Shown here: one piece after another, positions 52,659 through 57,235 of the stretch
How the letters are laid out: the number at the start of each line of letters is the position of its first letter
Numbering within the stretch: the stretch's first letter is position 1
Source: Candidatus Thorarchaeota archaeon
GTDB taxonomy: Archaea; Asgardarchaeota; Thorarchaeia; Thorarchaeales; Thorarchaeaceae
Reading direction: 5' to 3'
Assembly: GCA_048882325.1 (NCBI GenBank)
Contig: JBHLRS010000004.1
Location: 70,425-134,424 of the forward strand
Length of the DNA stretch: 64,000 nucleotides
Translations under genes and position numbers: made by a program
The notes under the pieces: model-generated
Seen by the model: the letters and a program-made list of their open reading frames with translations, nothing else
Told to the model about the DNA's origin: nothing
The model's database searches: none

Positions 52659-53543
52659 TCAGCTACTTGCAGCCACTTCTTTCAATTTACTCTTCCATGA
52701 CTTAATCTCACGGCTTAGGCTTGCGATGTCATTCTCATTCAAAGTTGCAGTGGGGGGATATGATTTCAGCTCACGAGCACGTTTGCCAAATTGAAATAGT
52801 ACCGGTGTATGACCTTTGATCATCGTCGTGAGTTCATCACGAACTTCCTCAAGTGCTTCAGCCATCTCAGCTGCTTCGGTCTGTGGAATCACAAGAGTCA
52901 TCAGATTGTCCATTAGGTTATCAATGGTCGATGGAAGATTCGTCTTATCTGGAGGTTTGACCTTGGGGGTATCTTCATCTTCATCTTTCGGTTTCTTTGT
53001 AGGTTTCTTGGTTTCAGGAAATGATTCGGCAGCACCAGACTTTATGAACTCAGTGAGTGTTTCAACAGCTTCTGTGACTTTATCAATTGCAACATTGTAT
53101 TTGCGTTCAATGTCATCCAACTGCCGAACAATGATTCCAACTATTTCCTTTGTTTCCTCAAACTGACCAGTGAGATCTTGAACTTTCTCCTCAATGCCAG
53201 AGAACTCAGCAATGTAATTCTGTAAATCATCCAATTTCTTTGGTACTACATCAGCATCAGCAATGGACACAAGTATATCATCAAGCTTCTTTATGATGAC
53301 TGCAGATTCCTTTGAGTCTTTGACTTCTTTGACAGCAGTGTCGATGCCATTGACGGACTTGACAAGATCATCCAGTTTCTTTGTAGCATCAAGTCCTTTT
53401 ACAGACTTTAACAGCTCATCTAACTTCTTTTCAACATCAGAAACTGAAGGGATCTCCTTACGCAGACTAGATATCTCCTCAGACATTTTGTCTATCTTTT
53501 GTTGGATTTCCTTGATTGCAGCATCTGTTTTCTCGGTGGCCAT
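52659..53543 (-). CDS. Coiled-coil protein with KKLD repeats and C-terminal helical domain
   Basis: Four KKLD(D/E) repeats, a K/P/D linker and a C-terminal PVL...W..KL domain. Confidence 0.75.
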   Translation of the reverse strand: MATEKTDAAIKEIQQKIDKMSEEISSLRKEIPSVSDVEKKLDELLKSVKGLDATKKLDDLVKSVNGIDTAVKEVKDSKESAVIIKKLDDILVSIADADVVPKKLDDLQNYIAEFSGIEEKVQDLTGQFEETKEIVGIIVRQLDDIERKYNVAIDKVTEAVETLTEFIKSGAAESFPETKKPTKKPKDEDEDTPKVKPPDKTNLPSTIDNLMDNLMTLVIPQTEAAEMAEALEEVRDELTTMIKGHTPVLFQFGKRARELKSYPPTATLNENDIASLSREIKSWKSKLKEVAASS

Positions 53544-53672
53544 AGCATCCCCTACTCATAATGGCGATTGTGTCCGTTCTGTAGCAGGGAAAGTAATTAG
53601 CCTTTCGGGAATGTAGTTAATGTGGTTGGAAGAGTAATTAGAGTGCGAGAAATGAGTGATTAGTGAAGGGAA

Positions 53673-54536
53673 CTATGCCTTTTTTGCCCTGATTACATCG
53701 ATCCCAGCTTTTTCTAGCATTGGAAGTACATGTGCTTTATTCTCAGCATTCATTCCTTTCCAATCGATGACAGCAGACACGATGGGATTAGTCGATTTGG
53801 TGATCATTTGATTGAGTACTTCATCCGTCAAGTCATTTACTGCATATTTTGGTGCCATATGGCCTATCTTGTAGTCCTTTTCAAGAACCAGCTTGTTGAA
53901 TTTACTAGCATAGTGAGTTCCACCAAATCCAATAACCGCGTTTCCATTCAGTGGTTCAGTAGTGCAGTCCATCACTGCAGACGCCACCGCTCTTGCACCT
54001 CCCTGATGGATCCAGTATTCCTCGGAACTTCCTAACTCAACAAAGACGAGGGGAGTGTCTAGTGTAGTTGGACCATGATGCGTCACCTCAAGCGACACAT
54101 CAAACTCATCCAACCTGTTCTTGTTTCGTTCTTTGAACAACCTCCTAAGTGCAACAGAAACCAGAGATGGAGCTGACTTGGAGAGCTGGTGGGGATTTCC
54201 TCCAAATAGCGCTTCATTACCCAAATTCCCGGTACTATGTACTAGAAATGCAGGTTTTCCGGATTCTGCACGATGCCGAGAACAGAAGATGAAAGCATCA
54301 GCCTCAAAGTGTTTTTCAAGATGGTCACAATGAATCATATCACGTGTTGTTGTAATCAGTAGCACATCGTTACCCTTTGAAAAGATGGGGTGGCCTTCAA
54401 ATGATTTGGTGGTTGAAGAAAAACCATGTTCACTAAGTAGGATGTCTTTGATGGTTAAGCTGGCTGTGTCTTGCTCTGAGGTGACTAATATCCGCAAGAT
54501 ACCTCCTCCCATATCGCTAGACTTGGCACAGCTCAA
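53673..54536 (-). CDS. dtdA: D-aminoacyl-tRNA deacylase (archaeal DTD2)
   Basis: SRH, HSTGN, EVTHHGPT, ELGS, GGTHYA and IDWK. Confidence 0.93.
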   Translation of the reverse strand: MSCAKSSDMGGGILRILVTSEQDTASLTIKDILLSEHGFSSTTKSFEGHPIFSKGNDVLLITTTRDMIHCDHLEKHFEADAFIFCSRHRAESGKPAFLVHSTGNLGNEALFGGNPHQLSKSAPSLVSVALRRLFKERNKNRLDEFDVSLEVTHHGPTTLDTPLVFVELGSSEEYWIHQGGARAVASAVMDCTTEPLNGNAVIGFGGTHYASKFNKLVLEKDYKIGHMAPKYAVNDLTDEVLNQMITKSTNPIVSAVIDWKGMNAENKAHVLPMLEKAGIDVIRAKKA

Positions 54537-55746
54537 GTAATGGTTCTAGACTAACTTCCACCTGTAGAGTGACCTTCTCTCCAAAGGTTTCAAGAATCTC
54601 TGACTCAATGCGGCTCTTGAAATCCTTCACTTTGTCAATTTGCCTTGTGATGTCGTCCCGAATTCTAAGAAGGTCATTTCGATGATATTCTAGGTTCTTG
54701 GTTGCTTCATTCAGTTCACCTTGAAGAGTATCATTCTTCGTGTATACATCTGATCCAGCGTAGGTGTGGCGTTTGTTTTCGATCTCTTTTGCTTGATCTT
54801 GGTACTTTTGCAGGGCACCATTCCGAATTGCTTCTACCTCCTCCACTGCCCTTCTTGCAAGTCGATCCTTCAATGGGAGTTTTCCATTTTCAATTGCCTC
54901 CTTTAGTCCAGATAGACCTTCAATAAGTCCGGGATAACCCTCAGACTCCTCAACAATCGCAGTATAGGGGTCCTCAAAGTACTCTGTTAATGCTTTCTGA
55001 CCAGCTGGACTGATTCTAACGCCCGTATCATGCTGAAAGAATTTCTTCACCTGCTTCTTCAGGGGATTCAGCTTCATTCTGAGAAGACTACCTACATGAT
55101 CTGCCTGTTCGTCCAAGCTGAGGAGTTCAGCAACGTTGGAGGATTCAGTGAAGTCGTCATAAGCCTTCTTTGCAGAGTTATATTCGGTCTGCGCGGTCTC
55201 TATCTTTCGACGAACCTGCTGGATCTGTTCCTCAAAGATTTCTCTACTGAAGGTTAGATCATGGAGTGTGTCAATCCGTCCCCCAATTCGTTCTAAGTCC
55301 TTTATCCAACTATATTCATAGAGCAGTTTATTGAGCTTGTTCATTTCACGTGCGAGTTCTTTCATGTATGTGTCAAGTGTTTTAATCACATTCTTGTATC
55401 GCTTGTCCATCCTCTTAATCCATCGAGCACCAGCGCCCCAGAGCTCTTGGATGAATCTCTGAATCTCCTCCTTCATGGCTTCAGTGTTTTCGTACGTGAT
55501 GTCTTTGTCCACATAAAAGTCAGATACAATCTCCCCAATCTTCATGGCAAATCTCGAAGCAATACTACCGGATTCGAGTTCTTCATCCTCTTCATCTTGG
55601 AACTCCCTTGTTAGCTGCTCTATGTCTTTCAGCGTGGTTTCAACAATTCTATAGCTCTTTTCTGCGTATTTGATGAAATCCTTTGACTGCTTTCTAAGCT
55701 GTTTTCGATACCATTTCTGAAGTTGTTCGACATTAAGGTTAGTCAT
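54517..55746 (-). CDS. Uncharacterised coiled-coil protein
   Basis: About 409 aa, all-helical and charged; ATG 55746 follows a GGTGA SD. Confidence 0.75.
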   Translation of the reverse strand: MTNLNVEQLQKWYRKQLRKQSKDFIKYAEKSYRIVETTLKDIEQLTREFQDEEDEELESGSIASRFAMKIGEIVSDFYVDKDITYENTEAMKEEIQRFIQELWGAGARWIKRMDKRYKNVIKTLDTYMKELAREMNKLNKLLYEYSWIKDLERIGGRIDTLHDLTFSREIFEEQIQQVRRKIETAQTEYNSAKKAYDDFTESSNVAELLSLDEQADHVGSLLRMKLNPLKKQVKKFFQHDTGVRISPAGQKALTEYFEDPYTAIVEESEGYPGLIEGLSGLKEAIENGKLPLKDRLARRAVEEVEAIRNGALQKYQDQAKEIENKRHTYAGSDVYTKNDTLQGELNEATKNLEYHRNDLLRIRDDITRQIDKVKDFKSRIESEILETFGEKVTLQVEVSLEPLLELCQV

Positions 55747-55839: not shown

Positions 55840-55846
55840 TTTATAT
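55840..55846 (+). promoter_or_regulatory. Putative TATA box of the candidate selenoprotein gene
   Basis: TTTATAT about 45 nt upstream of ATG 55891. Confidence 0.4.
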
Positions 55847-55890
55847 CAAGTCGAACTTAGAGTTGAATAGCATTGGTAGCGTGATCAGTC

Positions 55891-56694
55891 ATGTCTGAGA
55901 CCTTGGAAACCGGCAATCGGAAGCCGAGGCTAGATCTCACGTACTGCGTTGAGTGCATAACCTGAGGCCGAGGTAGTCTGGGTTTCTTCATGAAGCGCCT
56001 CAGTTTGATAGATTCCCGCGGGAAGGACCGCCTGTTACTCCGGAATCCTGCTGGATACAAAGGGGGTTTCTGGTTGACCTACTATGCAGATGAGATGTTC
56101 TGCATGGCTGCGTCCACTGAGAATGACTCCTTCTCTATGGTGAGTGAAGCGCATGGAAAAGGAATGCTGAGTGTATCCCTGACCCATTCGCCCTTACTTG
56201 ACGGAGTTCCGACTATAAGGATGGACATTCAGGTCTGGAGCCATAATAAACCGTTCATGCTTATCCGGCATAAGACAACCAATGTAACAGGACAACCCAT
56301 CAAGAACCTAAAACTCTTCGAGTTTATGGACTTTGATATAGGAGGACCTGCTAGCTACAAAGATGATCAGGGTCTCTACGAGCCTGACACTGGCCTTATG
56401 CTGGTGTATGATGGAAATCCTCTACTAGTCGCGCTGGCATCTCAACCAGACCCGGACCGATGGGAAATTTCAGCACCGACCAAGCTGCTGGTCAACGAAG
56501 AAATCCCGGATCTACGTAATAACAATGAGCTCGGGCCGGCTGATGTGGCGACTGGACTCCAGTGGAACCTTGGAAACTTGGAACCGGGAGAAAGCAACCA
56601 GATCGACACAATCATTGCATCAGCGACCAGTTTCGAAGAGGTCAAGGCTCTCATCCCTAAAGGATGGCAGCTCTTCGACAAGAAGATACGATGA
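55891..56694 (+). CDS. Candidate selenoprotein (Sec at TGA 55963-55965; YCVECITU motif) with a beta-rich C-terminal domain
   Basis: ATG 55891 is exactly 33 codons upstream of, and in frame with, ORF 55990. The only intervening stop is one TGA in a CxxCxxU context, and a SECIS-like hairpin lies at the 3' end. Confidence 0.75.
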
Positions 56695-56732
56695 AGCAAG
56701 AACGTAAAGTAATGCAGTTCTTGTTGAGATCT
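56684..56732 (+). promoter_or_regulatory. Eukaryote-type SECIS element
   Basis: agat-acg-ATGA-agcaagaacgt-AAAgtaat-gc(a)gttcttgtt-GA-g-atct: helix I, AUGA/GA core, 11-bp helix II with one bulge and an apical AAA. Confidence 0.78.
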
Positions 56733-56764
56733 GGGAAGCACCCAGTTCTTCTGTTGATAGCCTC

Positions 56765-56797
56765 AAAAAAAAGAGAGCGGGGACCTTCAAAGTCCCC
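56765..56797 (-). terminator. Hairpin plus U-tract terminator after wHTH gene
   Basis: ggggac...gtcccc stem at 56779-56797, followed on the minus strand by ctctc and a T run. Confidence 0.55.
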
Positions 56798-56803
56798 TAT
56801 GAA

Positions 56804-57235
56804 CTAGAGAGTATTCTCTAGATAGTCTGCCAACATCTGGGCCTCTTGTGTTAGACAAGCAAGCTGTCCTTTATTACTCAAATCACCACCAGTCAGCAGT
56901 CCCATGTTCTTCAGAGAGCGTAAATTCCACTTTACAGTACTGTACGCAACATTACTGTGACGTGAAACTTGGTCTGCGAGAGCTGTTAGGGTCAAATCAC
57001 GATGTTTCAACAGCTCATGACTCATTCGTAGTACCTGCTTCTGCGTATCGCTCAACCTAGTTTCTGCTAGTCTGAAGAACGATGCAGCAAGACTTTGAAA
57101 ATTAGTCGTCGAGACCTTACGGTCACTTAAGAACACATTCACCTCGTGACTTAATTTGGTAGTCACCTGCTGGATGGTTGTCACCTTTTGTGTTCGAGAC
57201 CCGATGTCGATGGGCAGTTGTAGTTGTTTCAGCAC
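56804..57235 (-). CDS. Winged-helix DNA-binding protein (start uncertain)
   Basis: LSDTQKQVL...TLTALADQVS...YSTVKWNLRSLKNMGLL...LT. Confidence 0.75.
   Translation of the reverse strand: MLKQLQLPIDIGSRTQKVTTIQQVTTKLSHEVNVFLSDRKVSTTNFQSLAASFFRLAETRLSDTQKQVLRMSHELLKHRDLTLTALADQVSRHSNVAYSTVKWNLRSLKNMGLLTGGDLSNKGQLACLTQEAQMLADYLENTL

Follow-up and report, generated by a model that had tools for sequence, protein, structure and literature searches.

A conserved reading frame interrupted by TGA

The DNA analysed here, referred to as the window, is a stretch of 64,000 nucleotides from the genome of Candidatus Thorarchaeota archaeon (GenBank assembly GCA_048882325.1, contig JBHLRS010000004.1; contig C4:70425-134424 of a genome of 3.6 Mb that is 93% complete), and the gene under study, at window positions 55891-56694, is predicted to encode a selenoprotein. 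From ATG 55891 a frame of 267 codons runs to the stop codon TGA 56692-56694, and its sole internal stop is TGA 55963-55965 at codon 25, directly after ...YCVECIT. The list of open reading frames (ORFs) of the window shows just the 234-codon part that begins at ATG 55990. An initial annotation, made from the letters of the sequence, had proposed that the internal TGA encodes selenocysteine (Sec) and that a selenocysteine insertion sequence (SECIS) lies at the 3' end. All positions it gave were confirmed, namely those of ATG 55891, both TGA codons, AUGA 56691-56694, AAA 56706-56708, GA 56726-56727 and the TATA-like box.

Two putative start signals precede ATG 55891 (Table 1). The TATA-like octamer TTTATATC, or a near variant of it, was found at equal distance 5' of the ATG in nearly all 49 orthologous loci and probably acts as a promoter element. 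The Shine-Dalgarno-like element, (G)GTGATC or GTGGTC, was conserved 4-6 nt before the ATG in most loci; GTGATC is presumably complementary to the 3' end of 16S rRNA. Searches with the read-through protein of 267 amino acids (aa) gave zero matches in Pfam (E ≤ 1) and NCBIfam (E ≤ 0.01), and the annotated 234-aa version likewise belonged to no Pfam or NCBIfam family. Homologues in the databases are 'hypothetical proteins' of Thorarchaeota/Promethearchaeota, almost all of them called at 233-238 aa or shorter, i.e. with a start after the TGA; one example is the SMTZ1-45 protein AM325_009340.

Using the read-through protein as query, we performed a six-frame search of 87 species genomes of the class Thorarchaeia and obtained matches in 69 of them. 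About 60 matches spanned query residues 1-267 with exactly one internal stop, which was always TGA, and these full-length one-TGA orthologues were distributed over 15 of 17 genera at identities from 81% down to 33%. Of 49 loci, 48 had TGA at codon 25 and the remaining one (genome G035, ..ECSSCGQGR..) had TGY (Cys). The frame was kept across this position in all loci with zero indels. The N-terminal consensus of 50 loci reads MSEiLETGNRxPRLDxxYxVECxS-U-GxGRxGFYIKRLSLID. In 46 of 49 loci the ATG was located exactly 11 codons 5' of the invariant PRxD. In the alignment, codons 1-24 behave like translated sequence, with unchanging residues upstream of the TGA encoded by several synonymous codons (four each for G8 and P12, six each for R13 and L14, two for D15).

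The Met encoded by ATG 55990, the annotated start, was replaced by Ile in most species. Homologues do not begin near 55990, the segment upstream of the TGA is conserved in frame, and the TGA aligns with either TGA or Cys, all in agreement with the initial annotation. The CxxCxxU motif that it described has to be shortened to CxxU: around the Sec only C22 and U25 were conserved, as C22-x-x-U25, and C19, the first Cys of the longer motif, was seen in just 10 of 50 loci, those of the window and its closest relatives (L003-L011).

A predicted three-helix SECIS at the 3' end

We aligned the 3' ends of 50 loci and scored covariation; the invariance of the GA was taken from a 40-locus alignment. The first base of the AUGA core was A or G and the remaining UGA was invariant. 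Compensatory changes occurred at all pairs of helix II, with 86-93% of the alignment cells paired and a folding z-score of -3.0. Pairing in the upper helix amounted to 85.5% of cells compared to 66% in shuffles and about 40% with a slid partner, and 0 of 500 shuffles reached the observed value. Helix I was paired in 75% of cells with both-side changes in 5 of 8 pairs, the compensatory cases being GGAAGA/TCTTCC, GGCAAGAAG/CTTCTTGCC, GAAGC/GCTTC and ACAGGAA/TTCCTGT. A third hairpin, which separates the core from the 3' strand of helix I, also displayed compensatory changes (CAGAG/CUCUG, CGAGG/CCUCG and CCGGG/CCCGG). The base 3' of AUGA and the base 5' of GA were mostly unpaired, which fits a kink-turn core. 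Locus L033, the Cys form, has lost the 3' strand of helix I, and its apical loop is altered.

Huang, Xiao and Zhang (2024, PMC11227280) give a type I model of Asgard eukaryotic SECIS (eSECIS)-like elements with the core 5'-GA_[G/A]A-3', an upper stem of 7-15 bp with at most 2 mismatches and an apical loop of 8-20 nt. The window element, with nine pairs, one bulged A and a 10-nt loop, falls within this model. The alignment identifies the 3' element as a covarying three-helix SECIS with a kink-turn core, of the eukaryote-like type I found in Asgard archaea, and by analogy its three-way junction on a kink-turn would correspond to the arrangement known as a k-junction. The eukaryote-type SECIS proposed initially was thus right in its core, its AAA loop and its hairpin, which is conserved with compensatory changes, but it had been drawn too small. 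The 11-nt arm said to pair with 56714-56725 exists as a helix that actually joins 56696-56704 to 56715-56724 with A56716 bulged. The proposed outer AGAU/AUCU helix was not conserved, and its place is taken by the conserved lower helix AGAAGA (56681-56686) with UCUUCU (56747-56752).

With the Asgard eSECIS-like type I elements, the window element shares the AUGA...GA core, an upper stem of 9-10 bp, a 10-nt apical loop starting with GUAAA and the position at the 3' end of the gene. The GUAAA loop has been reported for frhA genes of Thorarchaeia (PMC11227280). According to Mariotti et al. (2016, PMC4989117), SECIS elements of Lokiarchaeota can overlap the coding sequence, and in VhuU.1 the AUGA doubles as stop; the overlap of AUGA and stop codon is therefore an already known feature. 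Unlike these elements, the one in the window belongs to a gene outside the listed families, and the 5' strand of its covarying lower helix lies in coding sequence. No description of an inserted third hairpin was found in the main text of either paper.

A similar layout was observed in the SelD genes of the class (20 genomes/loci; L063, L117-L135), which end in ..CCC[A/G]TGA with the stop codon within the SECIS core. In their 3' ends an upper stem is followed by GAGGA and then by a GC-rich hairpin, whose loop is 5 nt long (YGCRA) and whose stem shows compensatory changes. Next comes the 3' strand of a lower helix, in which (G)GUCUC is able to pair with a GAG in the terminal codons, yielding a three-helix SECIS. 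In the window's genome the SelD stop codon is located at G000:C13, 30470-30472, on the minus strand (L063). The main texts of the two papers were not found to describe a three-helix SelD SECIS. The SelD elements and the window element have the stop in the core, the GAGGA, the inserted hairpin with its 5-nt loop and the lower helix in common. They differ in the ministem (type II) of the SelD element and in its loop, YGCRA instead of NAGCA, and the covariance model of the new family misses SelD. As SelD is an undoubted selenoprotein gene of the same organisms, the shared layout provides independent support for the predicted SECIS.

The Sec machinery and its natural loss

The window's genome harbors a Sec gene cluster at G000:C26:30504-34752 that comprises, in this order, a PSTK-like gene (+) and tRNA-Sec, SepSecS and SelB (all -), listed in Table 1. 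The SelD gene, with an in-frame TGA of its own, is located on contig C13. All components of the machinery that the initial annotation had named are thus present.

SepSecS was detected by the specific model TIGR03531. With 71 genomes over the cut-off and two further genomes with fragments, 73 genomes were positive and 14 negative. The TGA form of the gene was found in 65 of the 73 SepSecS-positive genomes compared to 1 of the 14 SepSecS-negative ones. The genus of the window offers natural loss experiments, in which Sec is exchanged for Cys, the gene decays or the machinery decays. G035, which has no SepSecS, carries the same gene with Cys at codon 25. In two further genomes without SepSecS the gene is damaged: in G041 only codons 196-267 are left between intact neighbours, and in G044 codons ~84-217 are deleted and a frameshift is present. 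G031 has neither the Sec machinery nor a copy of the gene. No intact SelB orthologue and no tRNA-Sec above the cut-off were found in G035, G041, G044 and G031, and SelD was also not found in G041 and G044. At G044:C1:34554-35746, SelB fragments broken by TGA, TAA and TAG lie beside a tRNA-Sec-like gene of 46 bits (cut-off 47); G044 holds a decaying Sec locus. The control genome G037 possesses all components of the Sec machinery and the gene. This distribution shows that the TGA form depends on the Sec machinery across genomes, with Cys, decay or loss where the machinery is missing.

The four FlpD/MvhD-type (FlpD/VhuD) domains of the window's genome are encoded in long ORFs whose matched parts contain no TGA, and a search for the large subunit of a NiFeSe hydrogenase gave no real match in this genome. 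Judged on these FlpD/MvhD and NiFeSe clients, HdrA and Prx-like proteins excluded, SelD may make up nearly all of the known selenoproteome here. Since the known clients examined are Sec-free or missing, the gene may be a main reason to keep the Sec machinery. We propose that SelB with Sec-tRNA(Sec), directed by the SECIS 726 nt downstream, would read UGA25 as Sec, and that the terminal UGA, which sits within the SECIS core, would end translation. Being part of that core, the terminal UGA would not be recodable.

Table 1. Positions of the predicted selenoprotein gene, its signals and SECIS (window coordinates) and of the Sec gene cluster (contig C26)
Feature	Position	Strand	Remarks
TATA box TTTATATC	55840-55847	+	about 47 nt 5' of the start codon; octamer conserved
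Shine-Dalgarno-like GTGATC	55881-55886	+	4 nt 5' of ATG 55891; conserved
Predicted selenoprotein coding sequence	55891-56694	+	267 codons including Sec25, plus stop TGA 56692-56694; one-TGA frame conserved in about 65 species
Predicted Sec codon UGA, residue 25	55963-55965	+	C22-x-x-U25 motif, tip of N-terminal beta-hairpin
SECIS helix I (lower), 5' strand	56678-56686	+	within the last codons (K-K-I); pairs with 56747-56754
SECIS core AUGA	56691-56694	+	its UGA is the stop codon of the gene; U, G and A invariant
SECIS helix II and apical loop	56696-56724	+	56696-56704 with 56715-56724, A56716 bulged; loop 56705-56714, (G)UAAAG
SECIS core GA	56726-56727	+	3' side of G.A/A.G tandem; near-invariant GAG (56726-56728)
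Third hairpin CUGGG-AAGCA-CCCAG	56731-56745	+	inserted between core and 3' strand of helix I
SECIS helix I, 3' strand UCUUCUGU	56747-56754	+	covaries with 56678-56686
PSTK-like gene	C26:30504-31208	+	149 bits, below the 290-bit cut-off; adjoins tRNA-Sec
tRNA-Sec	C26:31246-31332	-	58.6 bits
SepSecS	C26:32055-33320	-	457 bits
SelB	C26:33352-34752	-	TIGR00475, 290 bits, over its cut-off

Relatives beyond Thorarchaeia

A profile search of 1.8 billion representative sequences yielded stand-alone relatives of 250-320 aa in other Asgard archaea. Among these, the distant relatives P0089, P0109 and P0192 have a CxxCxxC motif whose last Cys is aligned with the Sec, as judged by hhalign for P0089 (probability 98.9) and by their sequences for the other two. 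The same search also found large relatives of 600-4000 aa, secreted multidomain proteins with transglutaminase, PKD and similar domains. These share only the C-terminal half of the sandwich fold described below, and they were dropped as a functional clue.

In a second profile search, of 400 Asgard genomes, the window's family alone contained the full-length form. Weaker matches came from f22, a second large Asgard family (123 of its 135 genomes), and also from f21, f23, f30, f20 and f16. In 24 of 28 distant loci the annotated ORF is bounded by a TGA at the equivalent place, and a conserved in-frame peptide precedes it. This peptide reads IVLKVxFNxIxAT-U-NxxGYLMGFS in f22 (L082, L085, L086, L091-L106), where Cys at position -3 occurs in one genus only, FDYVCTI-U in f23 (L081, L089, L090) and RMLCSK-U in f30 (L080, L087, L088). 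The f22 genes have a strong GGAGGT 8-9 nt 5' of a conserved ATA codon, with GTG or TTG one codon later in one genus; the conserved ATA is likely to be their start codon. Downstream, a Loki-type SECIS (AUGAUUCAAAUAAAAAA...UUAUUUGAUGA) with a lower helix and an inserted hairpin at the equivalent place was observed. The family is thus not restricted to Thorarchaeia but extends to f22. The database entries of f22 are 286-aa 'hypothetical proteins' of Lokiarchaeota/Promethearchaeota, all starting after the TGA, and two f22 loci look frameshifted. In f23 and f30 the TGA and the CxxU are present, and no clear AUGA-type SECIS was recognised by eye. Members of f21 have CxxC with Lys at the place of Sec, no stop and no SECIS-like sequence, and f21 is a useful negative control.

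Predicted fold

An AlphaFold2 model was built with an alignment of 29 sequences (predicted local distance difference test score, pLDDT, 90; predicted template modelling score, pTM, 0.89). It is nearly all beta, its only helices being one at the C-terminus and a short one (153-158). The hairpin made of strands 13-22 and 29-40 carries C22 and U25 at its tip (residues 21-30). The full chain superposes on 1ug9 and 1lf6 with Z 23.3 and a root-mean-square deviation of 2.5 Å over 227 of 267 residues (Foldseek probability 1.00), and the model predicts a stand-alone galactose-mutarotase-like beta-supersandwich of the GH15_N/GH94_N type, in line with the beta-sandwich suggested initially. The whole protein corresponds to the N-terminal supersandwich of the bacterial glycoside hydrolase (GH) family 15 glucoamylase/glucodextranase (1lf6, 1ug9) and of GH94, GH116, GH149 and GH161 enzymes. 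It differs from the GH15/GH94-type domains in that identity is 9-14%, no Pfam match is obtained and the chain ends after the sandwich, without an (alpha/alpha)6 catalytic domain. The window protein bears the Cys/Sec hairpin. The shared fold shows no shared function. Invariant residues cluster in the motifs DFDxGG, SYKDD, GPxD and LQW.

The Cys-x-x-Sec motif is shared with the Rdx group (SelW, SelT, SelH), in which we take it to form a 'redox box', and with the Asgard Prx-like, DsbA-like and AhpF-N-like selenoproteins. In contrast to thioredoxin-like CxxU selenoproteins, the window protein is predicted to be an all-beta supersandwich with the motif at the tip of a beta-hairpin and not at the start of a helix, and f22 mostly has Sec without the Cys. 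A thioredoxin-like fold was absent from the model, and all listed structural matches were sandwich domains. By Pfam and NCBIfam, the protein belongs to none of the seven Asgard selenoprotein families (SelD, FrhA/VhuU, HdrA, FrhD/VhuD, Prx-like, AhpF-N-like, DsbA-like), and its predicted fold is unrelated to them. The view of the initial annotation that it resembles no familiar archaeal selenoprotein family is upheld against this list.

Alternative explanations

We estimate a probability of roughly 0.9 that UGA 55963-55965 is the Sec codon of a 267-residue selenoprotein encoded at 55891-56694, as first proposed, a reading borne out by frame conservation, the covarying SECIS and the presence of the Sec machinery. 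Several observations weigh against it. No Rfam family, SECIS models included, matched anything in the whole window at gathering score, and the SECIS models also gave no match in 56640-56790 at E ≤ 10. Our own covariance model of the 44-nt core detected only the window locus in the genome (56 bits; next 16 bits), so that similarity to other SECIS elements has to be judged by anatomy and by the SelD comparison; for listing the other SECIS elements of the genome this model was dropped as too family-specific. A loose AUGA-stem-AAA-GA pattern occurred 372 times in the genome. The motif in a single sequence is therefore not beyond chance, and the evidence lies in the cross-species covariation. G069 (65% complete) has an intact TGA form without detectable SepSecS, G021, G022 and G045 are SepSecS-negative yet have Sec-SelD, and the genome counts take in related genomes, which are not independent observations. 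Since G021, G022 and G045 keep Sec-SelD, some of the SepSecS 'negatives' are assembly gaps. We consider it extremely improbable that the TGA is an ordinary stop codon ending a 24-codon upstream ORF or leader peptide, that ATG 55990 opens an independent gene of 234 residues and that the 3' hairpin acts as a terminator or stability element. Every public annotation does call the gene this way (234 aa or similar), a U-rich stretch follows the hairpins and the hairpin is partly kept in the Cys-form L033. However, ATG 55990 is not conserved, both start signals precede 55891 and not 55990, the frame continues across the TGA without an indel in all loci, and in one species Cys in place of the stop joins both parts. 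Moreover, the 'U-rich stretch' is the 3' strand of a covarying helix, and the gene decays with the loss of a Sec machinery on which an ordinary gene would not depend. Read-through with insertion of another residue, either Trp or Cys by a near-cognate or suppressor tRNA or after lineage-wide reassignment of the code, is in keeping with one database entry (P0080) in which a gene caller rendered the codon as W. TGA terminates both this gene and the SelD gene, however, and is therefore not reassigned; Cys, with which Sec usually alternates, is the residue found in its place; its TGA form tracks SepSecS, SelB and tRNA-Sec; and a SECIS with the SelD layout lies downstream. Non-Sec read-through is thus highly improbable.

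Regarding the role of the Sec, we tentatively suggest, at slightly less than even odds, that it serves as attacking nucleophile in a redox site and acts on a ligand bound at the conserved Asp-rich face (DFDxGG, GPxD, LQW); the Thorarchaeial form would have a C22-U25 selenenylsulfide. Two points count against this suggestion: the Sec loop, residues 21-30, is the least confident part of the model (pLDDT 58), and most f22 members have no Cys at -3, so that a CxxU selenenylsulfide is unlikely to be obligatory. In a real selenoprotein, the Cys/Sec hairpin could also be a metal-binding knuckle, to which a second subunit might contribute, for Zn, Fe, Ni or an Fe-S cluster. C-x-x-U-G at the tip of a beta-hairpin resembles the CxxCG knuckle of rubredoxins and zinc ribbons, and the CxxCxxC of the distant homologues has a spacing typical of cluster binding. 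Nevertheless, we regard a metal site as unlikely, as the Thorarchaeial form offers just two conserved ligands, most f22 members keep the Sec alone, and f21 has CxxC with Lys at the place of Sec, a loss of ligand that metal sites rarely tolerate. Redox families often lose the neighbouring Cys while keeping Sec, whereas metal sites rarely do, and a redox site is favoured because subfamilies keep Sec while losing the nearby Cys.

Relation to known Asgard selenoproteins

Sec-dependent chemistry on a carbohydrate-enzyme-type supersandwich would be, to our knowledge, a combination known in no domain of life. The study of Lokiarchaeota by Mariotti et al. (2016, PMC4989117) reports five families and 'no further selenoprotein candidate'; that of Sun et al. 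(2021) names HdrA, Prx and MvhD. Huang et al. (2024, PMC11227280) searched more than 400 Asgard genomes with known selenoprotein families as the only queries, and they list seven families and call for new ones. The same seven-family list is given in a 2026 review. Full-text searches of the literature brought up no other report. The protein family described here is not listed in the main texts of the published Asgard selenoproteome lists from 2016 to 2026, supplementary tables and Liu et al. 2018 aside. Sequence comparison indicates that it is almost certainly a selenoprotein family unlisted for Asgard archaea. Most Thorarchaeia have it, and a form with a shorter head occurs in f22.

Archaeal selenoproteomes are commonly regarded as small sets of known families, and the seven listed for Asgard archaea all came to light by homology with known selenoproteins. 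The new family would be Asgard-specific with a non-thioredoxin fold. Hundreds of truncated 'hypothetical protein' annotations would be corrected. The three-helix layout of the SECIS, which is outside the published Asgard models, bears on SECIS recognition in archaea without SBP2. It is an attractive but doubtful idea that the family is the most widespread 'client' selenoprotein of Asgard archaea (Thorarchaeia, f22 and possibly two more families), with Sec chemistry on a carbohydrate-enzyme-type supersandwich and with the SelD-shared, k-junction-like SECIS as a platform for an archaeal SECIS-binding factor.

Neighbouring genes

A divergent gene encoding 409 aa (54517-55746, minus strand) and a convergent gene encoding 143 aa (56804-57235, minus strand) flank the gene in all 50 loci. 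The block of five or six genes is syntenic as a whole, and both neighbours are intact where the selenoprotein gene has decayed; the neighbours are therefore not claimed as functional partners. The 409-aa protein is 70-87% identical across Thorarchaeia, far more conserved than the selenoprotein, and belongs to no Pfam family. Only weak PhoU-like sequence matches were obtained, and one relative has a precomputed BAR-domain Pfam match. By feature search, it was nearest to family-less hypothetical clusters, whose few classified members are mostly from Bathyarchaeota or Methanobacteriota. No Pfam or NCBIfam glycosidase match was found for this protein. A split GH15-type enzyme with the 409-aa protein as catalytic barrel was considered and dropped, as by sequence this neighbour is only weakly PhoU-like.

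The 143-aa protein matches the TK0271 family of transcriptional activators weakly, at 28 bits against a cut-off of 130, and a GC-rich hairpin after an A-run at about 56766-56797 is probably part of the 3' end of its gene. The conserved block also includes, at window positions 52659-54536 on the minus strand, genes for a coiled-coil protein of 294 aa, whose ATG17-like and filament-like matches are weak, and for a D-aminoacyl-tRNA deacylase (PF04414, 224 bits).

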